From a phage: a stretch of DNA of 64,000 bases. Positions 4,801 to 58,354 of the stretch are shown here, piece after piece. The stretch lies in sequence record PZ674596.1; one strand, given 5' to 3'. The notes beneath the pieces were generated by a model, which saw only the letters and a program-made list of their open reading frames with translations, had not been told where the DNA came from and did no database searches. Both the position numbers and the translations under genes were made by a program. Every line of letters begins with the position of its first letter. The stretch's first letter is position 1.

Positions 4801-5323
4801 CGCACTCATGACACGGATGGCGGCTGAAATGGGCTTAGGTGATGAACTAATCCGCCCCAGCATTGGTATTAAGCCGAAAATCATGATCATTCTGGACAAT
4901 GCGAACGGCAATGATGCTCGAACCGGTTACTTCATGGAGAACGGATACGACGACTTTAAGGCCAAGCTATTGACGGCTGGAGATTTACGCATGGGCGATC
5001 TCTATGTCACAGGCGTTTGCAAGAAGGTTAAAGACAAAGAAAAAGACTACACCAAAGACGAGATCGGCCAGTTCACCGACTTTATACGTGAAGAGATCAA
5101 TCTGGTGCGTCCGACCTATGTGCTGACGTGTGGCAGCCGGGCAACGGCATTGTTTAACAACAAAAACAAGCCATCCGATTTGGTCGGCAGGAAGGAGTAT
5201 CTTCCAGACCTTGACGTTACTGTCTTTTACGGGTTTAACCCCAACATTCTTTACTTCAGACCTGAAGAGGGAGAACGACTAGAAGCGATATTAGCCGACG
5301 TAGCAGAAACTATTAAGACGTGA
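1805..5323 (+). CDS. dnaE: DNA polymerase III alpha-subunit-like replicative polymerase (DnaE family) with divergent C-terminal ~170 aa
   Basis: 1172 aa; conserved DnaE core GYFLMVRDL...GPGRGSSAGSLVAWCIGIT..DPI..GLLFERFINPER; RBS AAAGGTAAAAACAC before ATG. Confidence 0.9.
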   Translation: MKALMVRTDFSLGESALKAENAVKIAREAGYTAVISADSMNIASVIPLQRAAGDDMAVICGVKLNIVDDPTYEHRAKLAKESMRCMESLERGRNYSFTALIKNEKGYRDICELMTAANTREQFYFVPRLSLEQLVSTYAKGNIILLTSDIGSVFQRNDFAKIISTLITAGGKDNFYSVVYPHPTPFYDQINVRAMKVASALKIEPVAFYPAYYESIDDADIKDIAHMVTNNIKIDQPHRLRIPHQRDNAVNGRRHLLEALKAFSVRMDVPVTAAMASTTQDTIIDACTWRWHELPPALPKMADDEPATLMKLAVAGLRKRLTTKEFGYTPPASENRVYVERLKYEMDTLTRLGFCGYFLMVRDLMNHSRETGIPVGPGRGSSAGSLVAWCIGITNVDPIRHGLLFERFINPERLDLPDADLDFSQARRHEVIEYLNERYGEDYVAGIPNFTYLGAASALRDTARIYGVESADMAVSKELRNVEDDSLPLEELREQLASLDKYATKYPDAFNAACKLQSLMRGFGRHAAGMIVAGVPLTERTPVERRGDARCIAFDKRYCEAMGLIKLDVLGLATLDLLDSAKRYIKENTGEDINLDAISLEDRKVLDGFAAGYTQGVFQLESGPMRKLLKDLGGGIEPMSFKTVVATTALFRPGPIQSGMLDDYVSVAKGFMTPESLHPVLDELTAETNGVILYQEQTMNATRLLAGFTMAEADGVRKAIGKKDMEKMKSMGEKFIVQAQAGWIDVELEDGTTQRIHRAEHFKCEDGTLKTVEEALEYGAKLPINAVRVTASHPGLSEMKAKEIWTAFEKNGAYQFNKSHSVAYSLISYQSMWLKTHYPAEFFAAALTILGEDKHQGLVKDALTYGIRVLPPDVNVSSNRIEIRTLEDGSQVLYAPFSAVKGCSENGCQAIMRAREKVGGKFESLAQFEEAVEKRACNSRVRESLQKVGAFASIEPGSLPATDPERLRDQAELMGNLVIDAVKASRPFEMNPKRSAEINALMTRMAAEMGLGDELIRPSIGIKPKIMIILDNANGNDARTGYFMENGYDDFKAKLLTAGDLRMGDLYVTGVCKKVKDKEKDYTKDEIGQFTDFIREEINLVRPTYVLTCGSRATALFNNKNKPSDLVGRKEYLPDLDVTVFYGFNPNILYFRPEEGERLEAILADVAETIKT

Positions 5324-36217: not shown

Positions 36218-36922
36218 ATGAACAACCTCCAGTTAGAGCATTTTAACGTCACAGGCCATTCTGATTTTCCTTTCAAGTTTACATTGAAAGGTTATGCAGA
36301 GGATGCGGTAGGCCAGATCATTATTGATAAAGGCATCGTTAAGTTTGAGGGGAATTTTGATGAATCCGCGAAAACATTCATAGACTTCGTTGCCAAACGT
36401 TGGAGCGAGCAATGGAAAGACCTGGAAAAGCGCGCTAATGAGTTTGATCGGTTCATGGATGCAATGGATACAGCAAAAGAGGCTCTTGCTGCCGGGACTC
36501 CGTTAGATCTGGAGTCACTTTTCAACGGCGAAGTGGCCTCTGCGATGTTCGCCACCATGTTCGCGGGTGAGTTCGTCCGCAGCGGTGCCAAAAACTACCT
36601 TGAGCTGGATTACAACGTCCCTGCAATTGGCGACTTCGTCGTTACCATCCAACGCAAAGAAGGTAAGACGCCAGGTGAACGCGTCGCAGAGCTTGAGGCC
36701 GTTGTGGATCAGCGTAACGGAGAGTGTGACCGTTTGATCAACGAGCTTCATGCACTTCGGGAAGAAAGAATATGTGCGGGTAGCAATACACGTAATGCTG
36801 CGGATATCTACTTCCAGTTAGTCGAGGAATGCCAGATTCCACCAGGTGGCTCTCTTGTCGATTACGTCAGACATTTAATGGCGGAAGTTAACTCCAGCCA
36901 TAAAGATGGTGAGGTGCGCTGA
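36218..36922 (+). CDS. hypothetical protein (shares C-terminal module with 39406..40098)
   Basis: 234 aa; C-terminal NTRNAADIYFQLVEECQIPPGGSLVDYV also present in a second protein. Confidence 0.5.
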   Translation: MNNLQLEHFNVTGHSDFPFKFTLKGYAEDAVGQIIIDKGIVKFEGNFDESAKTFIDFVAKRWSEQWKDLEKRANEFDRFMDAMDTAKEALAAGTPLDLESLFNGEVASAMFATMFAGEFVRSGAKNYLELDYNVPAIGDFVVTIQRKEGKTPGERVAELEAVVDQRNGECDRLINELHALREERICAGSNTRNAADIYFQLVEECQIPPGGSLVDYVRHLMAEVNSSHKDGEVR

Positions 36923-37302
36923 TGTTTGGCATTGACGCACAGCGTGTAGCCGCTTTTGCAAAAAGCCCTCTTGATAATCCCTTGTCTCGTAGTGAGCAAA
37001 TGGAGCTGGCAAGGCTTTTTCTTCACATTCAAAAACAGGCAGACATTTTCAATAACATGCCTAATCAACCTATTCTGGATGGTCACATCCAGATGGTCAT
37101 TAACAGTCATGAGAAAGGCTGGGCTGCAATCGTCCCCTGCACAATTACATACAAGTTGGCGAAAGAGGTTCAAGAGTTTCGAAAAGCCAGTGTCGAATCG
37201 GAGGCTACCAAAGCCGCAATAAACACTCTTATTCGCATGGGGTTCACATGGAACGGTGGAGCCTACTGGCAAGCACCTCACCCCATTTTATCCGGCAATT
37301 AG
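36922..37302 (+). CDS. hypothetical protein
   Basis: 126 aa; start overlaps upstream stop. Confidence 0.45.
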   Translation: MFGIDAQRVAAFAKSPLDNPLSRSEQMELARLFLHIQKQADIFNNMPNQPILDGHIQMVINSHEKGWAAIVPCTITYKLAKEVQEFRKASVESEATKAAINTLIRMGFTWNGGAYWQAPHPILSGN

Positions 37303-37332
37303 ACGCTACAAATCCTTCGGCATGAATAAATA

Positions 37333-37395
37333 AAGGCCATAAGTTGTGGCCTTAAATAAATTGTTTTCCACCTTTTCTTATTTGTGAAAATAACC
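37333..37395 (+). promoter_or_regulatory. conserved terminator-promoter cassette
   Basis: Hairpin AAGGCCATAAGTTGTGGCCTT followed by AAATAAATTGTTTTCCACCTTTTCTTATTTGTGAAAATAACC; related copies near 42960, 46910, 50971, 51577. Confidence 0.55.
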
Positions 37396-37421
37396 ACAAC
37401 TAGAAAACAACGGAGTTAAGA

Positions 37422-38063
37422 ATGTCTAGTATTTCCGAAGCTCATATGTTCGCCGCTGGCGCTCATGGTGGCGTTGGTCAGAAAAGAAAATATACCGGCG
37501 AAGACTACATCAACCACCCGGTTGCGGTCCGAGAGATTGTTGCATTGCATGACGGAACCGTGGAGATGCAAATCGCGGCGCTTCTGCATGATGTGGTCGA
37601 AGACACCCATGTAACCATAGAGATGGTTCGTGATCACTTCGGTGAGCGCGTAGCTGAAATGGTTCAGGCTCTGACCAACATTGCAAGGCCAGAAGACGGC
37701 AATCGAATACAGCGTTTCATCATCAATGTCCGGGAGCTGGAGCAAAATCTCGACATGCAGACGCGCATGATCAAGCTGGCTGACCTGCTCGACAATACCT
37801 CTTCTATCGTGAGTCGCGATCCCGAGTTTTCAGCTGTCTACCTCGCAGAGAAAGAACTGATGCTGGACGTACTCTTTCACGGCAAAGAGATTGGTGCCAA
37901 CGCTGATGTTGTCGAGTACATGGAGAGGATAGGTATAGAACACCCGTTGCTATTAAGCGCAATGGCGAAAGTCACTGAAGGTATTGCGCTTCTGAAACCG
38001 GTACACATCAAACGTTATGAAAAACACAAATCGCTGATCTGGAGCGCGTGGGAGGCTGCATGA
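37422..38063 (+). CDS. SpoT/RelA-type HD-domain (p)ppGpp hydrolase-like protein (small alarmone hydrolase)
   Basis: 213 aa; aligns to RelA/SpoT hydrolase domain: EDYINHPVAV..IAALLHDVVEDT..FGERVAEMV..IKLADLLDN. Confidence 0.7.
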   Translation: MSSISEAHMFAAGAHGGVGQKRKYTGEDYINHPVAVREIVALHDGTVEMQIAALLHDVVEDTHVTIEMVRDHFGERVAEMVQALTNIARPEDGNRIQRFIINVRELEQNLDMQTRMIKLADLLDNTSSIVSRDPEFSAVYLAEKELMLDVLFHGKEIGANADVVEYMERIGIEHPLLLSAMAKVTEGIALLKPVHIKRYEKHKSLIWSAWEAA

Positions 38064-38602
38064 AGGTCGAAAAAATAGATGTTCTTTCCTTTGTGCTGAC
38101 GGATCTGGAACGCCTCGATCCGGTTCGAGTAATGATTGAAAACTACGAACCTGGTAAGGGAAGAATCACCATCATCTGCTACGGAAAAGCGTGGACTGCG
38201 GCTTGGTTTGCTATGGGCGGTGATGATGTGCAGACGTTCATTAAGCGGGTCAGCAACGAGTATCTAATCGGCTATTTCGACTCTCAACTGCGAAGCACGG
38301 TCGACGATGACAACGATGCAAATCTGCTTTTCGTGAAGTCAGAAATCATAAAGTTACGAAGAGAGAGAGAAATCGACGCCGTACTGGCTCGTGAAATGTG
38401 GGACGAGGCGGAAAACGCCGATGACGTAAAAGAAAGCTGCTGTTGTTTCGGCGTCGGTAACAAACTGCTGAATCTCTTTGGTGATGATCCGTGGTATGCC
38501 GACTGGCCAACGGTACCAAACCCGAAATACCAGTATCTGGAACGCATTGTGAACGCGGTACGTGAAGGGCTGAAAGAGTTAGACAAGTTAGAGGCATCGT
38601 AA
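38060..38602 (+). CDS. hypothetical protein
   Basis: 180 aa from ATG 38060 overlapping upstream stop. Confidence 0.45.
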   Translation: MKVEKIDVLSFVLTDLERLDPVRVMIENYEPGKGRITIICYGKAWTAAWFAMGGDDVQTFIKRVSNEYLIGYFDSQLRSTVDDDNDANLLFVKSEIIKLRREREIDAVLAREMWDEAENADDVKESCCCFGVGNKLLNLFGDDPWYADWPTVPNPKYQYLERIVNAVREGLKELDKLEAS

Positions 38603-39108
38603 TGAGAGAGAAAATCAAGAACCCGGTCGTCGTATTGTATAAACGGGAAACCAGCGATTCTTATGCGGTATCCATCACTGATGGAAGCCAGAACATGCAC
38701 GATGGTCTGCTAATGGCCGCCGTATCTCCTGATGATTCGGACTACCCTTTCGCCACTTTCGCTATGGTTGGTTACTACATGGCTGCCGAAATTGAGAAGT
38801 TGCGGGCGCAGAGAGACGCATTAGCGGCGGAGAATGTGGCATTGCGATCTAAGGCTGCGGAACTGGCACATGAAGCGTCAAAAATTTACTCGGCATATAA
38901 CGCCACTATCACAGAGCCTGACGGGGATTTTATGGACATGCAGACATTGCATGAAATGCAGTGCATAGAAACTCCAGCCACCGACGCTTTTCTGGCTGAA
39001 GTACGTGCGCAGGGCGTGGAGATGTTTGCGGAGTGTGCATACACACTTGAACATCATGATCACGCATTAGCTTTTGCCGCCGAGCTACGTGAAGGAGGCA
39101 ACCAGTGA
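38602..39108 (+). CDS. hypothetical protein
   Basis: 168 aa; start overlaps upstream stop. Confidence 0.45.
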   Translation: MREKIKNPVVVLYKRETSDSYAVSITDGSQNMHDGLLMAAVSPDDSDYPFATFAMVGYYMAAEIEKLRAQRDALAAENVALRSKAAELAHEASKIYSAYNATITEPDGDFMDMQTLHEMQCIETPATDAFLAEVRAQGVEMFAECAYTLEHHDHALAFAAELREGGNQ

Positions 39109-39404
39109 CTGTATGTCTTATTGATAAACGTCGACGTGGGCAACAAATACCATCTGTTGAAATGCCGAATCACACATGGTTTTGCGTACTTGATATCGAT
39201 GGTATCGATACGTTGATCGACACTCGTCATTACTGCGAAACCGCAACAGCTACTCCTGCAAAAGCAAAGAAAATGGCTGCTCTGATAGAAAACTGGACTC
39301 CACCTGATGGTTGGTGCAATGGGAATGATCGAGATTGGCACGAAAAAATGAAGGGCTATATCTGCGATTTTTTACGTAAATGCAACGGATTCAGGGTGAT
39401 GTGA
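39105..39404 (+). CDS. hypothetical protein
   Basis: 99 aa; GTG start after GAAGGAGG. Confidence 0.4.
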   Translation: MTVCLIDKRRRGQQIPSVEMPNHTWFCVLDIDGIDTLIDTRHYCETATATPAKAKKMAALIENWTPPDGWCNGNDRDWHEKMKGYICDFLRKCNGFRVM

Positions 39405-39405
39405 T

Positions 39406-40098
39406 ATGACCAACATTAACTATCAGGCACTGCGTGAAAAGGCAGAAAAAGCAACGTGGGGAGACTGGGACTCATATAAACCACACCGTGGCGCACGTGG
39501 TTATAAGGTCCGACTAAGTGGTCAGGCCATTGCGCAACACGTTCTGAAAAACAACGCTGAATTTATTGCTGCCTTTAATCCAAAGGTTGCTTTGGCATTA
39601 CTGGATGAACTGGAAAGAAACCAGCAATACATCAAACGCCGTGACCAGGAGAACGAGGAAATTGCGCTAACGGTAGGGAGGCTTCGCGTTGAGCTGGAAG
39701 GCAAAGACAGCAAAATAGCCAATCTTACCGCCGAACGCGATGCTCTTCGTGAAGGTGAGATGGGCGACGCTAGGCATAGCAACACACGGGCCGCAGCTGA
39801 TATCTACTTCCAACTGGTCGAGGAGTGCGAAATTCCTGCTGGCGGTTCTCTGGTCGAGTACGTTGACGATATGCGCGAGAAGTTGGAAGCCGCAGAGAAG
39901 CGCATTGCAGAGTTAGAAAGTGGTTCTCAGGCACAAAAGTTAGTTGAAGCAATCATTGTTGCGATAGAAAACGAACAGGAAAGGCTTTTTGATGAAGATT
40001 ACCTAATGGATTCGAAAGAATGCATTGACGTAATTCGTGAAGAAGTAAAGCGATGGAATGATTCCCGTGCCGCTGGCATTCGCATCAAAGGAGAGTGA
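39406..40098 (+). CDS. hypothetical protein (paralogous C-terminal module)
   Basis: 230 aa; NTRAAADIYFQLVEECEIPAGGSLVEYV matches C-terminus of 36218..36922. Confidence 0.5.
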   Translation: MTNINYQALREKAEKATWGDWDSYKPHRGARGYKVRLSGQAIAQHVLKNNAEFIAAFNPKVALALLDELERNQQYIKRRDQENEEIALTVGRLRVELEGKDSKIANLTAERDALREGEMGDARHSNTRAAADIYFQLVEECEIPAGGSLVEYVDDMREKLEAAEKRIAELESGSQAQKLVEAIIVAIENEQERLFDEDYLMDSKECIDVIREEVKRWNDSRAAGIRIKGE

Positions 40099-40099
40099 T

Positions 40100-40363
40100 A
40101 TGGCAACTTTGACAAAAAAAGAACAAGCATGGTTGAGCGAATTACAGGACGTTCTTGATCGCTGCCCATCACCGAAAAAAATTGGTTTTTACACCATTGG
40201 CGATAAAAGCATTTACCTGTATGACCTGCGCCGCATGGATGAAATCATGGAGGCTCTTGATAATCGTTCGTCGATGGATTGGTGTGTTGCTGTCCATGAT
40301 ATGAATGCCGGATTTGATGAAAGGATTTTGTTCCCCTCGTCAGTTGAAAGCACTGCGGGTTAA
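40100..40363 (+). CDS. hypothetical protein
   Basis: 87 aa from ATG 40100 after AAAGGAGAG; table ORF extends into upstream gene. Confidence 0.4.
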   Translation: MATLTKKEQAWLSELQDVLDRCPSPKKIGFYTIGDKSIYLYDLRRMDEIMEALDNRSSMDWCVAVHDMNAGFDERILFPSSVESTAG

Positions 40364-40373
40364 GGAGTAACAC

Positions 40374-41213
40374 ATGACCACTATAACCGATAAGAAACAG
40401 TATCCAGGCGAGCAATATCTTAATGAGCTAATCACCAACATAGAGTTTGCTGCAAGGGCACCAGTTGAAGTCGTGAGAGCGATGGCAGCAGAGCTACAGA
40501 AGCGGCGCGAAGCTGATAGTGCAGAACCTGCAAGTAATCATGAAGAGTTGCCGCTTGATTATCTCCAAGGTCAAAAAGATGGTCTTGAATGGGCTGCGCA
40601 GCTTGCAGAAGCAAATCACCCACAAACTGGCGACTGGCTTTACGATGACCCGCTGGAGCTGGCTAAAGCTATCAGAAAAGGTCCTGACATGCCCGAATTC
40701 GATGGACCAACTCCGGTAACTCCGGATGGTTGGATAAGCTGTAGTGAGCGAATGCCTGTAATTGGCGAGCTAAATTGGAGAACTAGTTTTCCTTTACTGG
40801 TTATGTGTGAGATCGGCGTTATACCTGCTTATTACGGCTTTGTGAGCGTTAATGGTGATAGGCATTATGGCTTTATGGAGAGTCTTAAATACGGAGACGA
40901 TAACGGCAACCATCCTCAAACTAATGAATATGGTCTGATTAGCAATGTCACACACTGGATGCCACTACCAGAACGCCGCAGGAGTCGAACAGTGAATAAA
41001 GCAGAGTTATTTCAGAAAATATCGGCTCTCGCGACTGAATGTCACGCTATAGCATCTGAGCTTGATGTTGGCGGTGAACGAACCGAGATGTTCGAAATAT
41101 ACAGTGTGCTGCGCAATCTCTGTCGGCGTGGCTACGCTACTCAGGTAGGGCGAATGACTAACCCACTACTTTCATTCTGTGATGAGGATGACTCGGATGA
41201 GGATGACGAATGA
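40374..41213 (+). CDS. hypothetical protein with acidic C-terminal tail
   Basis: 279 aa; ends DEDDSDEDDE; central W..C..RMP / THWMPLP segment. Confidence 0.45.
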   Translation: MTTITDKKQYPGEQYLNELITNIEFAARAPVEVVRAMAAELQKRREADSAEPASNHEELPLDYLQGQKDGLEWAAQLAEANHPQTGDWLYDDPLELAKAIRKGPDMPEFDGPTPVTPDGWISCSERMPVIGELNWRTSFPLLVMCEIGVIPAYYGFVSVNGDRHYGFMESLKYGDDNGNHPQTNEYGLISNVTHWMPLPERRRSRTVNKAELFQKISALATECHAIASELDVGGERTEMFEIYSVLRNLCRRGYATQVGRMTNPLLSFCDEDDSDEDDE

Positions 41214-41593
41214 TGCATAAATCAGTAGCCGGTGAGCTTCAGAAGGAAGTCGATAATACCACTGATCTATTGGACGATATTTTAAGCATTCTCGCGCTGC
41301 TTGAGGCTGGTGATTGGTCAGAACATTGCACTAAAACAGAGCTAGGCGGTCGGCTTGAAAGAGAGATTACACGACTGATTAGCGATGCCCAAAATGATTT
41401 GTCACCTGAGCATCTCCCCTGCGATGTAGTTCTTGTGCCAGGGATGAGGATACACGAAGGCGTCAGAACGAAAACATTATTAACCGCATTACAGAGAAGA
41501 GCCGAACTAAGCTCGCGGATAAAGTTGATGCCATCCAAAATATTTGATGTCGTCAAATTTACGCCATCGCAACATACTGAGAGAGATAAATGA
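41210..41593 (+). CDS. hypothetical protein
   Basis: 127 aa; start overlaps upstream stop. Confidence 0.4.
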   Translation: MMHKSVAGELQKEVDNTTDLLDDILSILALLEAGDWSEHCTKTELGGRLEREITRLISDAQNDLSPEHLPCDVVLVPGMRIHEGVRTKTLLTALQRRAELSSRIKLMPSKIFDVVKFTPSQHTERDK

Positions 41594-42405
41594 GCACGGT
41601 AGCGAAAGATCTCACAGAAGATATTCTCAATGAAATTATTGCTGGTGCAAATACCTCGCTTGAGCAACTTCTTGCGTTAGCACTGAGAGCCGAACGTCGA
41701 GACAGAAATCGTTTTTATGAGCGATTACCAGGGAAGCGACCAGATAGATCGGATGAAGAAGGTTGCGATATAGACTACATGGAGCCTTCAGAGATTTATC
41801 AACTTGGTAAAGATGACGGCTGGAACGCTTATCACGATGCTGTGATGAAGTTGGATGAAAAAGTTAAACCTCTTTCTCGACCGGTAGATCACGGTTTCCG
41901 CGATAACTGCGAATGCTCTAGTTGCCAGACCACGGCCCGTATTTGTTCCGAATTGACAGATAAGTCCAGCCTAATCTACGAAGTTAATGTAGGCGGTAAT
42001 ACATGGGTCGAATGCACAAGAGCTGCATACGTAAGAGCAAAAGACAAGGGTGAATTAACCAGAGTTGTTACCCATCACCCAAATAATGAGCTTAAAGATC
42101 ACCAGATTAGAGAACTGGTGAACGAGTTGCGGGATATTGCGGTTACGTATCACGGAACGCAGCAATTGCGGGAGAAAATTGCCAGAGCAGTGAACAACTC
42201 GCTCAAAGGTGGACAATCCCAACCGAAACGTATACGAATTACACATATAGGTGAAAACGGAACAGAAATCCCCCAATTTTCTGTTGGGGACATCTTTGAT
42301 GTACATGGAGAAGAGTTTGGCGAGCCTCACATCACTATGCCTAGTGGCCATGTTTATTGGCTAAGAGCTATGGAGAAATATGGTGATAAATGGGAAGTGT
42401 TATGA
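41590..42405 (+). CDS. hypothetical protein with Cys-rich motif
   Basis: 271 aa; CECSSCQ..C motif; overlaps next gene start. Confidence 0.45.
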   Translation: MSTVAKDLTEDILNEIIAGANTSLEQLLALALRAERRDRNRFYERLPGKRPDRSDEEGCDIDYMEPSEIYQLGKDDGWNAYHDAVMKLDEKVKPLSRPVDHGFRDNCECSSCQTTARICSELTDKSSLIYEVNVGGNTWVECTRAAYVRAKDKGELTRVVTHHPNNELKDHQIRELVNELRDIAVTYHGTQQLREKIARAVNNSLKGGQSQPKRIRITHIGENGTEIPQFSVGDIFDVHGEEFGEPHITMPSGHVYWLRAMEKYGDKWEVL

Positions 42406-42418
42406 GGGATGCGAAGTT

Positions 42419-42943
42419 ATGACTAAATTTGGAAAGCTGGAAGCTCATTTGCTAACTCGTAACTACCGCCATGATGTGCATCCATATAGACAGTGGATCG
42501 ATGAAAGCGAAGGAGTTGTTACATTCCCTCTATACAGGTTTGATGGGATGTTGGCCGGGTATCAGACATACAGACCAGGCGCTCCTAAGCAGCATAGCAA
42601 TCCGAAGATGGCCCGGTATTTCACACGAGCGCACGGCAGACAGCTACTATGGGGAACCTATCTTCCTTTAAAAGATGGACCGATATGGATAACTGAGTCG
42701 ATTTTTAAAAGTGCAGCAGTGCACAACGCGGGCGGAAATTCGTGGGCGCTGTTAGGTTCGACTTTCTCAGCAGGATTACGTCGTCAACTGGCAATGCTGC
42801 CGTATGACTTTCGCGTAATAGGTGACAATGATGCGGCTGGTGAATCACTTGTGAAGTCTTTCGGAAAAGGTTTTGTGGCCCCGGATCTTGACGAGCTACA
42901 ACCAAATGAAGTGTCTCATTTGATTTTTAGCCATAGCCAATAA
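42419..42943 (+). CDS. Toprim-like domain protein (tentative)
   Basis: 174 aa from ATG 42419; acidic motifs ITESIF and GDNDAAGE spaced like Toprim E and DxD. Confidence 0.4.
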   Translation: MTKFGKLEAHLLTRNYRHDVHPYRQWIDESEGVVTFPLYRFDGMLAGYQTYRPGAPKQHSNPKMARYFTRAHGRQLLWGTYLPLKDGPIWITESIFKSAAVHNAGGNSWALLGSTFSAGLRRQLAMLPYDFRVIGDNDAAGESLVKSFGKGFVAPDLDELQPNEVSHLIFSHSQ

Positions 42944-42959
42944 GCATCCCTTCTCCATT

Positions 42960-43022
42960 AAGGCCACTAGTTGTGGCCTTAAACAATTTGTTTTCTACCT
43001 TTTCTTGTTCGAGAAAATAACG
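42960..43022 (+). promoter_or_regulatory. conserved terminator-promoter cassette
   Basis: AAGGCCACTAGTTGTGGCCTT followed by AAACAATTTGTTTTCTACCTTTTCTTGTTCGAGAAAATAAC. Confidence 0.55.
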
Positions 43023-43079: not shown

Positions 43080-43099
43080 TACTGTATAAATGAACAGTA
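43080..43099 (+). promoter_or_regulatory. LexA (SOS) box upstream of humD-like gene
   Basis: TACTGTATAAATGAACAGTA fits CTGT-N8-ACAG; 17 nt upstream of ATG 43116. Confidence 0.7.
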
Positions 43100-43115: not shown

Positions 43116-43505
43116 ATGGGCTTCCCTTCTCCTGCGGCGGATTATGCTGAGAGCCGTATTTCTCTTGATCAGCAGATAATTAGACATCCTTCAGCGACCT
43201 ACTTCATGAGAGCGGCTGACAGCCATCATCGTGAGGGAATATTGCAGGGCGCATTGCTGGTGGTCGATTCCTCACTTACCCCGGTTGATGGTTCTCTGCT
43301 TGTATGCGCTCTGGATGGGGAATATCGCGTAAAAAGATACCGGAAGTATCCACGTCAGCATCTGGAGGATTTAAGAACTGGTAAGAAGGAAGCATTGCCA
43401 AAGGATGACGATGGATGCACGGGCAGCAATGCCGTGTTTGGTGTGATCACTCACATTATCAACGACGCAAGAAGTGGCGAGTTTGATGATTGTCCCGTGA
43501 TGTAG
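43116..43505 (+). CDS. humD: UmuD'-like protein lacking the N-terminal arm (HumD-like)
   Basis: 129 aa beginning MGFPSPAADY, i.e. at the UmuD Cys24-Gly25 processing site; Ser and Lys of the catalytic dyad alignable (ADSH; VKR); P1 HumD has the same form. Confidence 0.75.
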   Translation: MGFPSPAADYAESRISLDQQIIRHPSATYFMRAADSHHREGILQGALLVVDSSLTPVDGSLLVCALDGEYRVKRYRKYPRQHLEDLRTGKKEALPKDDDGCTGSNAVFGVITHIINDARSGEFDDCPVM

Positions 43506-43542: not shown

Positions 43543-44643
43543 TCACACTGCGCGGAATGCGATTTCGCCAGGTATTACTTCACCTTGCCAATACATTTGG
43601 GCAGCAACGCGATCTGCGAGGTCACGATAAATAGCTGTAAATTCGCTATCTGGACGACTAATAACGGTTGGTGTTCCGTTATCCAGATCTTCACGAAGAG
43701 AGATATGAAGTGGCATTTGGCCTAACAACTGCGTGTTGTATTTCTCGGCCAGTTTCTGTGCGCCACCGGTGCCAAAAATTGGCTCGTGATGACCGCAGTT
43801 ACTGCAAATATGCACACTCATGTTTTCAACGATACCCAGTACCGGCACTTCGACTTTTTCGAACATCACAATGCCTTTCTTCGCATCGATCAGCGCGATG
43901 TCTTGCGGCGTAGTTACCACAACCGCACCAGTTACAGGAATGTTCTGCGCCAGCGTCAACTGAATATCACCAGTGCCCGGCGGCATATCGAGAACAAGAT
44001 AGTCCAGATCAGGCCACAATGTTTCCTGCAACATCTGCATTAACGCCTTGCTCGCCATCGGTCCACGCCACACCATTGCATTGTCGTCGGTGACCAGATA
44101 ACCAATAGAGTTGGTTGCCAGGCCATGAGACATGATAGGTGCCATGTGAGTACCGTCAGGTGAGGTTGGACGTTGGTTTTCCGCGCCCAGCATGGTTGGA
44201 ATTGATGGACCATAGATATCGGCATCCAAAATACCAACTTTCGCACCTTCAGCAGCCAACGCCAGTGCCAGGTTTACCGCCGTGGAGGATTTACCCACGC
44301 CGCCCTTGCCTGAGCTGACGGCGATAATGTTCTTAACGCCATTAATGCCTGGTTGGTTTTTGACGCGCTTAAGCGTGGCAATGTTGTACGACAGCTTCCA
44401 GTCAATAGCCTTTGCGCCAGTGATACGGAGCAGATCACCACTACATTGCTCTTTCAGGTCTTCAAAAGGCTTATTCCACACGAAAGGCATGATTAGTTCG
44501 ACATGCAGTGTGTCATCCATCAACGCAACATGGTGTAACGCTTTAAGCGTAGTCAGGTTGTGTTTCAGGGTTGGGTGCTGAAAATTAGCCAGCGTACCGG
44601 CTACCATTGCTCTCAGGGCATCCGGCGATTTGGACTCGCTCAT
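43543..44643 (-). CDS. mrp: Fe-S cluster carrier ATPase Mrp/ApbC (host-type)
   Basis: 366 aa; deviant Walker A SGKGGVGKSS; matches my recollection of enterobacterial Mrp. Confidence 0.9.
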   Translation of the reverse strand: MSESKSPDALRAMVAGTLANFQHPTLKHNLTTLKALHHVALMDDTLHVELIMPFVWNKPFEDLKEQCSGDLLRITGAKAIDWKLSYNIATLKRVKNQPGINGVKNIIAVSSGKGGVGKSSTAVNLALALAAEGAKVGILDADIYGPSIPTMLGAENQRPTSPDGTHMAPIMSHGLATNSIGYLVTDDNAMVWRGPMASKALMQMLQETLWPDLDYLVLDMPPGTGDIQLTLAQNIPVTGAVVVTTPQDIALIDAKKGIVMFEKVEVPVLGIVENMSVHICSNCGHHEPIFGTGGAQKLAEKYNTQLLGQMPLHISLREDLDNGTPTVISRPDSEFTAIYRDLADRVAAQMYWQGEVIPGEIAFRAV

Positions 44644-44800
44644 CCCGTCTCCTTTATTTTAATTTGCGCAATTGTCGCCTTGTAGTGTACTCCAGCTACG
44701 ACATTTAATCATTTATGAGAAATGCTGTTATCACATGGCAGACATAAGGCCATTTTGTTACTATCAAGCCCCTTTTCACTACAAAGAAGTAATGCCTACT

Positions 44801-46834
44801 ATGACCCAAGTCGCGAAGAAAATTCTGGTGACGTGCGCGCTGCCGTACGCTAACGGCTCAATCCACCTCGGCCATATGCTGGAGCACATCCAGGCTGATG
44901 TCTGGGTTCGTTACCAGCGAATGCGCGGCCACGAGGTTAATTTCATCTGTGCCGACGATGCCCACGGTACGCCGATCATGTTGAAAGCACAGCAGCTTGG
45001 TATCACACCGGAGCAGATGATTGGCGAAATGAGTCAGGAACATCAGACTGATTTCGCAGGCTTTAACATCAGCTATGACAACTATCACTCGACGCACAGC
45101 GAAGAGAACCGTCAGTTGTCCGAGCTTATCTATACTCGCCTGAAAGAGAACGGTTTTATTAAAAACCGCACCATCTCTCAGCTGTACGACCCGGAAAAAG
45201 GCATGTTCCTGCCGGACCGTTTTGTAAAAGGCACATGCCCGAAATGTAAAGCGCCGGATCAATACGGCGATAACTGTGAAGTCTGCGGCGCTACTTACAG
45301 CCCGACTGAACTGATCGAGCCGAAATCGGTAGTTTCTGGTGCTACGCCGGTAATGCGTGATTCCGAACACTTCTTCTTTGATCTGCCTTCTTTCAGCGAA
45401 ATGTTGCAGGCATGGACCCGCAGCGGTGCGTTGCAGGAGCAGGTGGCAAACAAAATGCAGGAGTGGTTTGAATCTGGCCTGCAACAGTGGGATATCTCCC
45501 GCGATGCGCCGTACTTCGGTTTTGAAATTCCGAACGCACCGGGCAAATATTTCTACGTCTGGCTGGACGCGCCGATTGGCTACATGGGTTCCTTCAAGAA
45601 TCTGTGCGACAAACGCGGCGACACTACCAGCTTCGACGAATACTGGAAGAAAGACTCCACCGCCGAGCTGTACCACTTCATCGGTAAAGATATCGTTTAC
45701 TTCCACAGCCTGTTCTGGCCTGCCATGCTGGAAGGCAGCAACTTCCGCAAGCCGACCAACCTGTTTGTTCACGGCTATGTGACGGTGAACGGCGCGAAGA
45801 TGTCCAAGTCTCGCGGCACCTTTATTAAAGCCAGCACCTGGCTGAATCATTTTGACGCCGACAGCCTGCGTTACTACTACACTGCGAAACTCTCTTCGCG
45901 CATTGATGATATCGATCTCAATCTGGAAGATTTCGTTCAGCGTGTGAATGCCGATATCGTTAACAAAGTGGTTAACCTGGCCTCCCGTAATGCAGGCTTT
46001 ATCAACAAGCGTTTTGACGGCGTGCTGGCAAGCGAACTGGCTGACCCGCAACTGTACAAAACCTTTACTGATGCCGCTGAAGTGATTGGCGAAGCATGGG
46101 AAAGCCGCGAATTTGGCAAAGCTATCCGTGAAATCATGGCACTGGCTGACCTGGCTAACCGCTATGTTGATGAACAGGCTCCGTGGGTGGTGGCGAAGCA
46201 GGAAGGACGCGATGCCGATCTGCAGGCGATTTGCTCTATGGGCATTAACCTGTTCCGCGTGCTGATGACGTACCTGAAACCGGTACTGCCGAAACTGACT
46301 GAACGTGCAGAAGCATTCCTGAATACAGAACTGACCTGGGATGGTATCCAGCAACCGCTGCTGGGCCATAAAGTGAATCCGTTCAAGGCACTGTATAACC
46401 GTATCGATATGAAACAGGTGGAAGCACTGGTGGAAGCATCCAAAGAAGAAGTGAAAGCCACAGCTGCACCGGTAACTGGCCCACTGGCTGACGACCCGAT
46501 TCAGGAAACCATCACCTTTGACGACTTCGCCAAAGTTGACCTGCGTGTGGCGCTGATTGAAAACGCGGAGTTTGTCGAAGGTTCTGACAAACTGCTTCGC
46601 CTGACGCTGGATCTCGGTGGTGAAAAGCGTAATGTCTTCTCAGGCATCCGTTCCGCTTATCCAGATCCACAGGCACTGATTGGTCGTCACACCATTATGG
46701 TGGCTAACCTGGCACCACGTAAAATGCGCTTCGGTATCTCTGAAGGCATGGTGATGGCTGCTGGCCCCGGCGGGAAAGATATCTTCCTGTTAAGCCCGGA
46801 TGCTGGTGCTAAACCTGGCCACCAGGTTAAGTAA
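44801..46834 (+). CDS. metG: methionyl-tRNA synthetase (host-type)
   Basis: 677 aa from ATG 44801 (table ORF has spurious 43-aa extension); [16 protein letters not shown], Zn knuckle CPKCK..CEVCG; near-identical to enterobacterial MetG as I recall it. Confidence 0.95.
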
Positions 46835-46880: not shown

Positions 46881-46995
46881 CATATAGACACAATCCCTCC
46901 TGATTTACACAAGCCCTAAAACAATTTGTTTTCTACCTTTTGTTGATTGAGATAATAAGCCACATAAGAAAACAACTTGTTTTGGAGTAGTTGAA

Positions 46996-50970: not shown

Positions 50971-51050
50971 AAGCCCGATAACAATTTGTTTTCTGCCTTA
51001 TCTGATTTGTGAAAATGATTTCACTGAAGCAAGTTAATAAGGAAACCATC

Positions 51051-54622: not shown

Positions 54623-55144
54623 TCAAAACGGTAAAATTCGTTCAACCCAATCGAAGAATACAAGTGTTTTTCTGCCGTCTTCTAACTTAAGAGTGACCTG
54701 GCAAGCATCAACGCCTCTTGATATCCCTTCTATTTCACGACCGTCTGCCATGTAGACCCTTATAGATTTGCCGTTTTGGTAAGCCTGACGACATATCTTA
54801 AAAAAGTCACGACGTGATGGCTGATTGTCAACATAGTCTGGATGTATTGTTAGCCTACCTTTGAACTCGCGAGCAATGCCATCGATTACACCTGATTCAA
54901 TTGTGCTAATGCGCTCAAGTGGGAGTCTTATACGATTTTCTTTATCATATGGAAGCGGGCATAAATCTAGCTTATTGCGGGAAGGCATTGTCCCCTGAAC
55001 GTACATGCAAAACACCTGACCGTCTTCAAGCGTGACTCTTACAGGAATGTTGTTTTTCCGCCAGAACATAAGTATGTTTTCAGCATGTTCGTAGTCTCGT
55101 GGCCAGACTTCTGCTGGAATGCCGTAGGTGATGTCTTTAACCAT
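54623..55144 (-). CDS. hypothetical protein with internal tandem repeat of ~80-aa domain (weak Sm/Hfq-like signature)
   Basis: 173 aa; halves share R..N.IPVRVTLEDGQV / GKSIRVYMADGREIEG pattern; ends 3 nt before the secreted-protein gene. Confidence 0.45.
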   Translation of the reverse strand: MVKDITYGIPAEVWPRDYEHAENILMFWRKNNIPVRVTLEDGQVFCMYVQGTMPSRNKLDLCPLPYDKENRIRLPLERISTIESGVIDGIAREFKGRLTIHPDYVDNQPSRRDFFKICRQAYQNGKSIRVYMADGREIEGISRGVDACQVTLKLEDGRKTLVFFDWVERILPF

Positions 55145-55246
55145 AGTCTACCTTTTTAAGTCTTTTTTGGTCATTATATACATCTCTATGATGCGTAGAC
55201 AGACTAACCGTACATTCCAACAAAAATTGATTATGGAACAAGTTTC

Positions 55247-56047
55247 ATGAAGAATGGGGTGAATAAAAAATACTCATTAGCATTGTTAATAGCGGCTTTA
55301 CTATTAACAGGTTGTGATTCTGATGAAGAGCGAGCCATAAATCTGGTCGAGAAGGATATTCGCTCTACACTGCTAGATCCTGATGCTGGTCGGTTCACGA
55401 ATATGCGAGCTATTCAGTTAGGTGAAAATAGCTATTCATATATGGTATGTGGAGAGGTGAATGGCAAAAACGTCTTGAACGCCTATACAGGTGCGACCGC
55501 ATTCAATGCACACATCTTTGATGTTCGTGAACGTAACCCGATTGTATTCGTTGCAATGGATAAAAATACCAACTCGGCAAGAGAACGATTACGTTTTGAA
55601 CGCCAAAATCTAGCATGTAAAGAAAATGGTGTGAAACTTTATCTGGAAAACGAATCTAATATCAGGAAGGAAAAAGAGAAAATAGATGATTTAAAAAAAA
55701 CTCCATTAGGTCAGGCTGTGTTTGATGCTGCAAGTGATTCGACATATGTGAGTAGAGAGTTGGGCGAATCGAGAGGTGTTAGTGAAGTGTATGCAAGAGA
55801 AAATGATAAATATGCTCTTGTTAGCGTCACCAATTATGACACTCCTGACTTTTACAAATTTAGGAAAAAAGATAACGGTGAACTAGAACCTGTTAGAGGA
55901 CTGTCTTACACCGGCTATCCATTCGCGGTTACACTGTGCCATTCTGAACAAACAGATTATGACAAATGCATAACAGAAGAAGAAATCAAGTTGCTTCGAG
56001 ACGAAAAGAATAAGCTGGATGATTTTGTCGTGCCACCAGAAGAATAA
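55247..56047 (+). CDS. lipoprotein of unknown function
   Basis: 266 aa; signal peptide with lipobox LLTGC; only plus-strand gene in the low-GC island. Confidence 0.55.
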   Translation: MKNGVNKKYSLALLIAALLLTGCDSDEERAINLVEKDIRSTLLDPDAGRFTNMRAIQLGENSYSYMVCGEVNGKNVLNAYTGATAFNAHIFDVRERNPIVFVAMDKNTNSARERLRFERQNLACKENGVKLYLENESNIRKEKEKIDDLKKTPLGQAVFDAASDSTYVSRELGESRGVSEVYARENDKYALVSVTNYDTPDFYKFRKKDNGELEPVRGLSYTGYPFAVTLCHSEQTDYDKCITEEEIKLLRDEKNKLDDFVVPPEE

Positions 56048-56106
56048 CATATACAAAATATTTAATTGCTGTTAACATTTAATCGTTCAGACATAGGGAA
56101 AGTCCT

Positions 56107-56144
56107 ATGCCCTCGACAAATCTTTCTGGTATTGTCGAGGGCAT
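56107..56144. terminator. bidirectional hairpin between convergent genes
   Basis: ATGCCCTCGACAA...TTGTCGAGGGCAT inverted repeat. Confidence 0.6.
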
Positions 56145-56169
56145 GTTTCACATTTATAGGTAGATAGCG

Positions 56170-57303
56170 TTAATTGGCGTTTTCGTTCTTCTCTTTTTTG
56201 CTAATTTCATCACATGCAAGGTTCATTATGTCTATGTTTTCTTGTTTTTGAAGGTTGCCGACAATTTTTTGGCGCAATTCATAAAATCGCTCGCGTGGTA
56301 TAGCTTCCTTGTTGCCGCTGATGTGAAGTATTGCGTGACAGCTAGGGCAGACGGCAATCAGATCTGTTTTTGGGTTCACGCTTCGTGCACCTTCGCCTTG
56401 TGAAAGTGGGATGATGTGGTGAGCGTGTAGCAGCGTTTTCGTTTCTTTACCGTCAATTTCCTTGCCGTATATTTCCGACATCGTTCTGCAACATAGTTGA
56501 CACCTGTAGTCTGCGTTTGCCAGAACGTCATTCCTTAACCCGGATACGCGGCTACGATGTTGCGACTGGATTAATCTTGTTTCGCCCTCTATATATTCCT
56601 CAACTTCTTCTTTCTGGAGGTCGTAGCTGATTTCTTCTTGAGTTACGTTGTCTTCTGCTTTGGCTGAGACTGCATGAATCTCTTTCTTATTCAACGAGAA
56701 AGGTGATTTGAGAGCATCAGCACTGTTTTGCCCTCTTGAATGTTGTGATTTTAGAGCAAGATTGTAAATCTCTTTTAATTTGACATTTTTTTTGTTTGTT
56801 CTAAAGAACTTTCTGCTCTCTACTTGTGAGATAATCCCTGATTCTATATATTGAATTAACACACGAAGAAAATGTTCTATAGATTTTTTACTTTTGAATG
56901 AAAAGGAATAGCCGACTTTCTTTCTCAACTCGTTTTCGCTAAAGAACTCTTTCAGATTTTCGTCGTCAGTCAGGTTAATGGTTGCACCTGCCCAGGTTGA
57001 AGCTTCTACAATTTCAGGAATAACCTCTTGGTCGCCAAGCTGATTGTTTATTTCATCCAGCATTTTAAAGACTGTCAATATTGGATACGGATTCGTCACC
57101 AGACCGTTAGAGGATTTCGTTCTAGGCCCATTCTTTTTTATAATGATGGGGTGCTGTTGAGAAGTTTTCTTTAATTGTAAATAATAAAGGTTTATATTAT
57201 TATTCGTTGATATACCTGCCGGTTTTATCAAGGATAATTTTTCATCACATGCAATATCATCTATTATATTTCTTAGGTCACACGTTTTTATAAATTGACG
57301 CAT
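56170..57303 (-). CDS. HNH-nuclease-domain protein with unknown N-terminal domain
   Basis: 377 aa; C-terminal CQLCC...HAHHIIPLS...CPSCH HNH signature; low GC; RBS GGAGGA lies in a CCTCCGAA/TTCGGAGG hairpin. Confidence 0.6.
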   Translation of the reverse strand: MRQFIKTCDLRNIIDDIACDEKLSLIKPAGISTNNNINLYYLQLKKTSQQHPIIIKKNGPRTKSSNGLVTNPYPILTVFKMLDEINNQLGDQEVIPEIVEASTWAGATINLTDDENLKEFFSENELRKKVGYSFSFKSKKSIEHFLRVLIQYIESGIISQVESRKFFRTNKKNVKLKEIYNLALKSQHSRGQNSADALKSPFSLNKKEIHAVSAKAEDNVTQEEISYDLQKEEVEEYIEGETRLIQSQHRSRVSGLRNDVLANADYRCQLCCRTMSEIYGKEIDGKETKTLLHAHHIIPLSQGEGARSVNPKTDLIAVCPSCHAILHISGNKEAIPRERFYELRQKIVGNLQKQENIDIMNLACDEISKKEKNENAN

Positions 57304-57443
57304 ATATCCTCCGAATTTCTTCGGAGGCGGAGCCTACAAATATCGTTCAGCCAATCAAGAAATTTTTTCAGCCGGAGGTGTACATTTCAAAAAATGTGAC
57401 GAATGTCACATGCAGGTGCTCTCATACACCTGCATGTAGACTA

Positions 57444-58010
57444 TTAATCATTCAATAATCTATATTTTCTTTTGATTAAATCTTCACCTTTTTTGGTGAA
57501 CACAAAACCAAATTGCGATTTTTTGTTTAGACGAAGGACTCTGTTATCCAACGCATCGGTTGATGGAATCAATGTTTGATCATCTATCCAATTAAGTAGC
57601 GTAAGAAAGTTCAGCAGCCTCAACGTTGTTGTGCGAAGCTCTTTCGATATATTTTCAATGCTGGCAATTCGTCTTTCTTTTTTCTCAGGTGGTACAGATA
57701 ATTGTTCTTGAGGTTTCGTGGATAGATAATCAATTTCGTTTGCTGCATCGAATGATATGTGTGGCGTAATTTTGCTAAAAAAGCCTTTCGCTGACTCACT
57801 TGATAATAAACCAGACCTATTCATATCGTTTGTTATTCTGTACAGGAGTGGACTGTGTTTCATTTCAGGATAACGTTGATAAAAGTTAAGCAATTCAAAA
57901 GCAGCATTAGCGCCAACAAGAAAATCAGAAGGATCGCTGACTTTCCAGAAAGAATGATTTTTCTTAGCGCCAGTGGTGTCAACAAATGATAATTCTTTTA
58001 ACCAACTCAT
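57444..58010 (-). CDS. hypothetical protein
   Basis: 188 aa from ATG 58010 with RBS AAGGAG; inverted repeat GATGTGCTC-N13-GAGCACATC overlaps the RBS. Confidence 0.45.
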   Translation of the reverse strand: MSWLKELSFVDTTGAKKNHSFWKVSDPSDFLVGANAAFELLNFYQRYPEMKHSPLLYRITNDMNRSGLLSSESAKGFFSKITPHISFDAANEIDYLSTKPQEQLSVPPEKKERRIASIENISKELRTTTLRLLNFLTLLNWIDDQTLIPSTDALDNRVLRLNKKSQFGFVFTKKGEDLIKRKYRLLND

Positions 58011-58075
58011 GATGTGCTCCTTTCTAACAAGTGAGCACATCATAGAATTAGTAGATAGGGGGTAAATATGAAATG

Positions 58076-58354
58076 TTACGGCAACCTGCTCAGTATTTCC
58101 TCTAAATCTTTTTTTGTCATATTGGAGTTTTCATAGATGCGCATGATTTTCTCACGCGTCTTAGCGGAAACCCCAACGGCAGATGTGACTTTGTCAAATT
58201 CAGCCATAGTCATCGTCTCCAGAATGGCATTGATAACTTCAGCCTTAGACATCTTGATTTTTTTCTCTTTGAGTTTTATTTGAAATTTTCCAAGTTTTTC
58301 ATTGGCCTTATCAGACAATGCCACTTGGCAATAAGTTGTTTTTTTTTCGCTCAT
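58076..58354 (-). CDS. small hypothetical protein
   Basis: 92 aa, Lys-rich; starts 2 nt after helicase stop. Confidence 0.4.
   Translation of the reverse strand: MSEKKTTYCQVALSDKANEKLGKFQIKLKEKKIKMSKAEVINAILETMTMAEFDKVTSAVGVSAKTREKIMRIYENSNMTKKDLEEILSRLP

Follow-up and report, generated by a model that had tools for sequence, protein, structure and literature searches.

A PaSpo-subfamily small alarmone hydrolase on an SSU5-group phage-plasmid and its probable role in counter-defence

Enterobacteria are known to defend themselves against phages by means of toxic small alarmone synthetases (toxSAS), CapRel among them, and SSU5-like phage-plasmids are frequent in E. coli, Shigella and Salmonella Typhi of clinical origin. 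A phage-borne hydrolase capable of reversing toxSAS chemistry represents an obvious counter-measure, and both this principle and the activity of the ortholog group considered here have been published. The small alarmone hydrolase (SAH) of Salmonella phage SSU5, classified in the PaSpo subfamily, neutralised all five toxSAS against which it was tested (i.e. CapRel, PhRel2, FaRel2, PhRel and FaRel, the last being a producer of (pp)pApp), and the discussion of the same study proposed that incoming phages might bypass toxSAS defence by means of their own alarmone hydrolases (Jimmy 2020, PMC7229694, Table 1). Four of these five toxins pyrophosphorylate tRNA at its 3'-CCA end rather than making alarmones, a modification that two SAHs, MESH1 and ATfaRel, can reverse in vitro (Kurata et al., bioRxiv 2021.04.30.441581). 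Leaky expression of the SSU5 enzyme (PaSpo^SSU5) was enough to detoxify FaRel2, the authors stating that the tRNA modification was removed (bioRxiv 2024.07.05.602228), and the enzyme enabled the purification of CapRel^SJ46 (PMC9712102) and, likewise, of PhRel2 (bioRxiv 2021.04.30.441581). Here, an ortholog of PaSpo^SSU5, encoded by a 213-codon gene (designated here as the SAH gene) in a 64,000 nt stretch of phage DNA (sequence record PZ674596.1; referred to below as the window), was analysed with respect to its domain content, predicted structure, genomic context and distribution.

A sequence-only reading of the window had assigned to this open reading frame (ORF) a RelA/SpoT-type hydrolase domain without a synthetase domain, and profile searches agreed on both counts. 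The deduced protein matched Pfam HD_4 (PF13328) over residues 8-135 (E=1.2e-18; 67.8 bits, compared with a cut-off of 27.2), as well as Pfam HD (6e-06), and was placed in phrog_990 of PHROGs, annotated as 'metal-dependent phosphohydrolase' (2.9e-55). The match to NCBIfam TIGR00691 (spoT_relA; 1.4e-24) was confined to positions 1-123 of the 687 positions of the model, which shows that the hydrolase part alone is present, and no match to synthetase, TGS or ACT domains was obtained in profile searches with the 213 aa protein. Solved structures matched by sequence comprised SpoT/Rel hydrolase domains, MESH1 and bacterial SAHs (1e-13 to 1e-5), the top matches being the hydrolase domains of two long RelA/SpoT homologues (RSHs), A. 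baumannii SpoT (1.7e-13) and M. tuberculosis Rel (5e-13), which carry the same motifs. Unlike the present protein, long RSHs additionally possess synthetase, TGS and ACT domains; the product of the SAH gene thus corresponds to an SAH, with a hydrolase domain only, and not to a long RSH. These sequence and profile match values lie far beyond chance. An antisense ORF at 37416..37745 (109 aa, TTG start), located wholly within the SAH gene on the opposite strand, was considered spurious.

The HD_4 core was found to carry R22, Y29, H32, H56-D57, E60-D61, K118, D121 and N125. In a HMMER alignment to human MESH1 (3NR1; residues renumbered to UniProt, since the PDB chain index runs one lower), H32, H56-D57 and D121 of the SAH paired with H35, H61-D62 and D122 of MESH1, and E60-D61, N125 and R22 with E65-D66, N126 and R24, respectively. 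The MESH1 residues aligned here are taken by us to be the Mn2+ ligands and the catalytic pair described in the structural literature on MESH1 and Rel. Across 81 aligned homologs, H15, Q20, R22, Y24, Y29, H32, P33, H56, D57, E60, D61, T62, R95, R98, K118, D121 and N125 are invariant. The HD motif is therefore intact, and the invariant set includes all four putative metal ligands (H32, H56, D57 and D121), the loss of which the sequence-only reading had named as evidence against its proposal.

Structure prediction using AlphaFold2, based on the alignment of the 81 homologs, yielded an all-helical model (mean predicted local distance difference test [pLDDT] score 96.6; predicted template modelling [TM] score 0.92), for which all 43 Foldseek matches in the PDB at E<1e-3 were RSH hydrolases, namely MESH1, the SAHs of P. 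aeruginosa and Leptospira, RelH of C. glutamicum, a (p)ppApp hydrolase from Bacteroides, and the hydrolase domains of Rel and SpoT. The C-terminal part is modelled as helices 134-152, 161-170, 175-189 and 193-212 (pLDDT >93), of which the terminal helix (193-212), together with a clade-specific insertion (~157-175), is absent from shorter SAHs. Taken together, the profile match above threshold, the set of metal-binding, catalytic and substrate-contact residues and the all-helical fold place the protein among RSH hydrolase domains, and support the prediction that the gene product is a catalytically competent single-domain RSH hydrolase. Similar predicted proteins occur in many phages.

The best structural match was MESH1 (HDDC3; PDB 3NR1, 5VXA), with a TM score of ~0.75 normalised to MESH1 and 26-28% identity. 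The correspondence of metal ligands and catalytic residues is one-to-one, and MESH1 rescues FaRel2 toxicity (bioRxiv 2021.04.30.441581); it differs from the present SAH in being a eukaryotic (metazoan) protein of 179 aa without the insertion and the terminal helix, and in being a reported NADPH phosphatase. The bacterial SAHs 6YVC (P. aeruginosa), 7QOC/7QOD (C. glutamicum RelH) and 7QOE (Leptospira) share the fold and the single-domain organisation, whereas their identity to the present protein is just 21-24% and they are chromosomally encoded, with housekeeping or immunity roles. Cellulomonas marina ATfaRel, a type IV antitoxin, is likewise a single-domain RSH hydrolase; it neutralises all toxSAS by degrading their product and restored tRNA aminoacylation in vitro (bioRxiv 2021.04.30.441581). 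ATfaRel adjoins its toxin FaRel in a toxin-antitoxin operon, in contrast to the present SAH, which has no synthetase neighbour on its element. Another stand-alone phage SAH resembles the present one in having no cognate toxin and in neutralising all tested toxSAS, but belongs to a separate SAH subfamily and derives from a virulent phage.

The closest relative among characterised proteins is that of SSU5 itself. The SAH exhibits 87% identity to SSU5_099 (gp099, YP_006906731.1) over 213 of 213 residues with zero gaps, and 19 of the 27 substitutions fall within the C-terminal 78 residues. Since SSU5 harbours a single locus matching the SAH protein (its only HD_4 gene), the published 'Salmonella phage SSU5 SAH (PaSpo)' can only be SSU5_099, and orthology with this author-classified enzyme assigns the present protein to the PaSpo subfamily (Atkinson 2011; Jimmy 2020). 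The two loci furthermore share the upstream motif, the ribosome-binding site region, the overlapping PF26211 gene, the position after a DUF4942 methyltransferase gene and the SSU5-group phage-plasmid background, while the host of SSU5 is Salmonella and the present allele is from Escherichia. The ratio of nonsynonymous to synonymous substitution rates (dN/dS) between the SAH gene and its SSU5 counterpart, 0.185 for the gene as a whole, shows purifying selection on the intact allele; the HD core gives 0.09 and the C-terminal part, which evolves faster than the core, 0.30. The possibility that this allele represents a decaying pseudogene was rejected in view of its intact catalytic residues and the core dN/dS.

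The finding of an SAH at this location is hence correct but already known: the gene is annotated, and its ortholog has been classified, tested for rescue and used as a reagent. The identical gene (100% nucleotide identity) of E. coli plasmid p4_0.2 is named 'HD domain-containing protein' in RefSeq (WP_021533175.1), and the SSU5 gene 'putative guanosine polyphosphate pyrophosphohydrolase/synthetase' in GenBank. The counter-defence hypothesis for phage SAHs is in print as well, as is, for the ortholog, the toxin-rescue experiment that the sequence-only reading had treated as open. What is new here is the evidence for purifying selection, the presence/absence pattern of the cassette that contains the gene, its apparent unit-heading position behind a conserved motif and the lack of a synthetase toxin on the element.

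The 4 kb surrounding the SAH gene is 99.5% identical to plasmid p4_0.2 (NZ_CP023851.1, 110 kb) and 86% identical to Salmonella phage SSU5, and ~88% of the whole window can be aligned to p4_0.2 with 95-99.8% identity. This plasmid encodes RepB and ParB, portal, terminase, tail and tape-measure proteins, as well as replication and nucleotide-metabolism genes, and this combination of plasmid and phage functions on a closely matching replicon identifies the window as part of an SSU5-group phage-plasmid, consistent with the earlier proposal that the hydrolase is element-encoded. No RelA/SpoT synthetase is annotated on p4_0.2 (99%-similar) or was found in the window-specific ORFs, so that there is no local toxSAS module to which the SAH could be the antitoxin; an ATfaRel-type operon was rejected on these grounds and because the neighbouring genes are of early type. 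A role as a component of a defence system was similarly discarded, as neither the SAH nor its neighbours matched PADLOC models, save for methyltransferase-type matches of the DUF4942 protein.

Since the SAH gene apparently heads an accessory unit of early type, and since the element lacks a synthetase toxin, counter-defence is the most likely role of the SAH, and we consider it probable that this presumably competent PaSpo-subfamily enzyme, the ortholog of SSU5 gp099, acts as a broad-spectrum counter-defence factor of the phage-plasmid. H32, H56, D57 and D121 would bind a metal ion, presumably Mn2+ as in MESH1 and Rel, and the E60-D61 pair would activate a water molecule for removal of the 3'-pyrophosphate from the substrate, for which (p)ppGpp, (pp)pApp and tRNA with a pyrophosphorylated 3'-CCA end are candidates. 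The SAH may in this way undo the products of host- or prophage-encoded toxSAS (CapRel, PhRel and FaRel types), which, if unopposed, would abort infection or establishment; in addition, host (p)ppGpp might be lowered. A metal-dependent 3'-pyrophosphohydrolase that reverses (pp)pApp and tRNA pyrophosphorylation is the best-supported reading of its biochemistry, and it probably also degrades (p)ppGpp. CapRel systems are found in E. coli prophages, Enterobacter and Klebsiella, where they protect against coliphages, and these genera correspond to the host range of the present elements. The suggestion that the enzyme could blunt alarmone-based responses has gained support from the rescue of E. coli from five of five toxSAS by the 87%-identical ortholog (PMC7229694), with the nuance that, because four of these toxins act on the tRNA CCA end (bioRxiv 2021.04.30.441581), modified tRNA may matter as a substrate no less than (p)ppGpp or (p)ppApp. 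For this particular SAH, we infer the substrates, the Mn2+ dependence, the timing of expression and the natural counter-defence role.

Several observations weigh against a counter-defence role. The neutralisation data all derive from plasmid co-expression in E. coli rather than from phage-plasmid infection or lysogeny, and for PaSpo^SSU5 itself no in vitro assay was found in the literature. The promoter assigned to the upstream motif is putative, as is the timing of expression. Moreover, the gene is carried by only about a fifth of the E. coli SSU5-like elements, and is dispensable, as evidenced by an IS1-associated deletion in plasmid pM160133_p3 that removes the whole unit, from nt 43 of the SAH gene to apbC. 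Lastly, degenerate alleles occur in some lineages: two are chimeric and HD-less, with SAH residues ~60-213 joined to an N-terminus that has an AAA-ATPase P-loop (P0010) or residues ~76-213 joined to the N-terminus of a protein resembling the product of ORF 36218 (P0012), and in a third (P0009, 231 aa) the HD motif is changed to HG, so that none of the three retains an intact metal site. In pM160133_p3, an IS1 remnant adjoins nt 43 of the SAH gene (positions 2501-2680 of locus L012), and the same 43 nt stub was also observed in several other E. coli plasmids.

The distribution of the gene bears on these points. It was detected on 144 plasmids from Escherichia, Enterobacter, Salmonella, Citrobacter and Shigella (at least 80% of the gene being present in 122 of them), 39 of which are Salmonella plasmids. 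Among 5,426 complete E. coli genomes, 44 harbour the gene (at least 80% of it in 36), in each case on a plasmid and never on the chromosome, while the two genes directly upstream are present in 190 (163 with at least 80% coverage), which indicates that approximately one in five E. coli SSU5-like elements carries the SAH. Such a presence/absence pattern is that of an accessory gene, of benefit in certain hosts but not needed in others. This natural polymorphism also supplies ready isogenic-like comparisons, for example between the present element and Escherichia phage Cyrano.

The SAH might alternatively serve as a modulator of the host stringent response, with host (p)ppGpp as its main substrate, so that the infected or lysogenic cell would remain in a growth-like state and phage or plasmid replication would benefit. 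The best alignments of the protein are to (p)ppGpp hydrolases (SpoT/Rel domains and MESH1), with common substrate-contact residues conserved, the element also encodes nrdB, thyA, dfr and dnaE among its nucleotide-metabolism and replication genes, and phage infection has been linked to alarmone accumulation (PMC7229694). However, if the SAH were a core replication aid, most SSU5-like elements should carry it, but ~80% of those in E. coli do not; the documented phenotype is toxSAS neutralisation, including four toxins out of five that do not act through alarmones; and neither a measurement of (p)ppGpp hydrolysis by PaSpo^SSU5 nor a paper connecting SSU5 phage-plasmids with ppGpp was found in the literature. 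A stringent-response role is compatible with counter-defence and does not exclude it, but as the principal function it appears rather unlikely.

Expression from the plasmid form could instead protect the lysogen, as an immunity factor against incoming (p)ppApp-synthetase toxins (for example secreted effectors of the Tas1 type) or the toxSAS of competing prophages, in which case the gain would fall jointly on host and element. SAHs act elsewhere as immunity proteins or type IV antitoxins against (pp)pApp toxins (ATfaRel), P. aeruginosa SAH and the Bacteroides (p)ppApp hydrolase are among the fold matches, and FaRel, which produces (pp)pApp, is one of the toxins neutralised by the SSU5 enzyme (PMC7229694). 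Given that the neighbours of the SAH gene are phage genes of early type, that a repeated phage-specific motif precedes it, and that evidence for secreted (p)ppApp toxins being common in enterobacterial hosts was not found, we regard a primarily lysogen-protective function as very improbable. A non-alarmone phosphoester substrate (NADPH, as for MESH1, or another 3'-phosphorylated nucleotide), with toxSAS rescue as a side activity, would be in keeping with the promiscuity of RSH hydrolases, the reported NADPH phosphatase activity of MESH1 and the presence of a complex of MESH1 with 3'-phosphoadenosine 5'-phosphosulfate among the structural matches, but is hardly credible, as nothing in the gene context suggests cofactor metabolism and the ortholog neutralises toxSAS already at leaky expression.

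An extension of the favoured counter-defence role would be that the SAH constitutes a polymorphic cassette that decides which SSU5-like phage-plasmids can infect, or become established in, hosts armed with CapRel-type systems, has been missed by catalogues and may include the PF26211 gene product as a second component. A survey of phage-plasmids with DefenseFinder listed no anti-defence system for SSU5-group elements of Salmonella, as against the 39 SAH-bearing Salmonella plasmids identified here, which suggests that the SAH is not represented in standard anti-defence catalogues. The extended proposal as a whole is doubtful and is put forward as a speculation. Coordinates of the SAH gene and associated features are listed in Table 1.

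Table 1. Features of the SAH locus (window coordinates; putative assignments are marked as such)
Feature	Position	Strand	Remarks
Palindromic hairpin AAGGCCAtaaGTTGTGGCCTT	37333..37353	.	Intergenic, upstream of the SAH gene; kept upstream of SSU5 gp099
Conserved intergenic motif TTGTTTTCCACCTTTTCTTATTTGTGAAAATAAC	37361..37394	+	Possible extended -10 TGnGAAAAT
Two-gene cassette (SAH and PF26211 genes), 1,205 bp	37397..38601	+	Local blastn against Cyrano
Ribosome-binding site GGAG	37412-37415	+	6 nt ahead of the SAH ATG; putative, read from sequence
SAH gene (213 aa + stop), SSU5 gp099 / PaSpo^SSU5 ortholog	37422..38063	+	ATG start
RSH hydrolase (HD_4) core, residues 8-135	37443..37826	+	Pfam envelope
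C-terminal helical part of SAH, residues 136-213	37827..38060	+	Alignment and model
PF26211 (Phage_phiTE_072) gene, 180 aa	38060..38602	+	Overlaps the SAH stop by 4 nt (ATGA)
Second hairpin and motif copy	hairpin 42960-42980, motif 42988-43021	+	Putative end of the SAH-headed unit

The SAH gene is preceded by a 119 bp intergenic region that holds a hairpin and a conserved motif, and both recur further downstream in the window. The motif (core TTGTTTTCYACCTTTTCTTRTTTGTGAAAATAAC) is present in four copies, all on the + strand and directly upstream of an ORF start (the two listed in Table 1, 46926-46959 and 50986-51008), whereas none is expected by chance; the same applies to the second copy of the hairpin, and the palindrome AAGGCCAnnnGTTGTGGCCTT precedes two of the four motif copies. 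Outside the window, the motif was observed in SSU5, Cyrano, other SSU5-like loci and one more distant lineage. The hairpin may represent a terminator or boundary of the preceding unit, and its combination with the motif would form a module boundary, in which a terminator-like hairpin is followed by a promoter-like element; the motif itself could be a phage-specific promoter or operator located at transcription-unit boundaries. Under such an arrangement, the SAH gene would be the first gene of a unit spanning 37422..42943 and closed by the hairpin at 42960.

Comparison with Cyrano by blastn delimited the region that is gained or lost. Window positions 36900-37396 correspond to Cyrano 3901-4397 (98.4%) and 38602-39024 to Cyrano 4441-4863 (88%), with 43 bp in Cyrano at the place of the two-gene cassette, which is present in the window and in SSU5. 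In E. coli and Salmonella elements the SAH and PF26211 genes are gained or lost together, and the two are paired in SSU5. Conversely, in Klebsiella-type elements the SAH gene is located directly upstream of the DUF4942 methyltransferase gene without a PF26211 gene, and in another lineage the neighbour is a different one, of 156 aa. PF26211 is a large family (455 clusters at E<=1e-10), members of which commonly stand alone in lambdoid prophages of the chromosome, flanked by an MT-A70 methyltransferase gene and a DksA/TraR-type zinc-finger gene; the protein has a confidently predicted fold with no solved relative. An obligatory two-gene module was rejected because of this unlinked occurrence, and the PF26211 gene was treated as an unrelated neighbour of the SAH gene, although the two might still share a role.

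Genes surrounding the SAH gene are of phage early type (Ead/Ea22, DUF7739 and DUF551), with an orphan DUF4942 methyltransferase gene upstream. Positions 13-101 of phrog_3451 (287 positions) match the N-terminus of the product of ORF 36218 (36218-36922) and positions 105-282 match the whole PF26211 protein (ORF 38060), while the C-terminus of the ORF 36218 product resembles the product of the Ea22-like ORF 39406; the region of ORFs 36218 and 38060 is a recombination mosaic. In an SSU5-like contig (L009) with a 41%-identical SAH (P0095), a gene resembling Tad2 (anti-Thoeris, PF11195; 1563-1877) is located four genes upstream of the SAH gene, which fits a region that collects counter-defence genes.

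Further observations concern other parts of the element. A perfect LexA-box-like sequence, TACTGTATAAATGAACAGTA, is present at 43080-43099, just upstream of an ORF for a UmuD-like S24 peptidase (43116-43505, + strand; phrog_811), and suggests that this peptidase gene may be under SOS control. According to the annotation of p4_0.2, two host-like housekeeping genes follow, i.e. apbC (iron-sulfur carrier; 43543-44643, - strand) and a full-length metG (44672-46834, + strand); the latter encodes methionyl-tRNA synthetase and lies 6.6 kb from the SAH gene, a curious pairing with an enzyme that may be able to repair tRNA 3' ends. Finally, a stretch of low G+C content (~55139-58105; 0.38, compared with ~0.46 elsewhere) is absent from p4_0.2 and could represent an element-specific insertion or a defence hotspot. 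Its ORFs encode a 266 aa protein (+ strand), a 377 aa HNH nuclease (- strand) and a 199 aa protein (- strand), the HNH protein displaying a weak likeness to PADLOC type IV restriction models (E ~1e-5).

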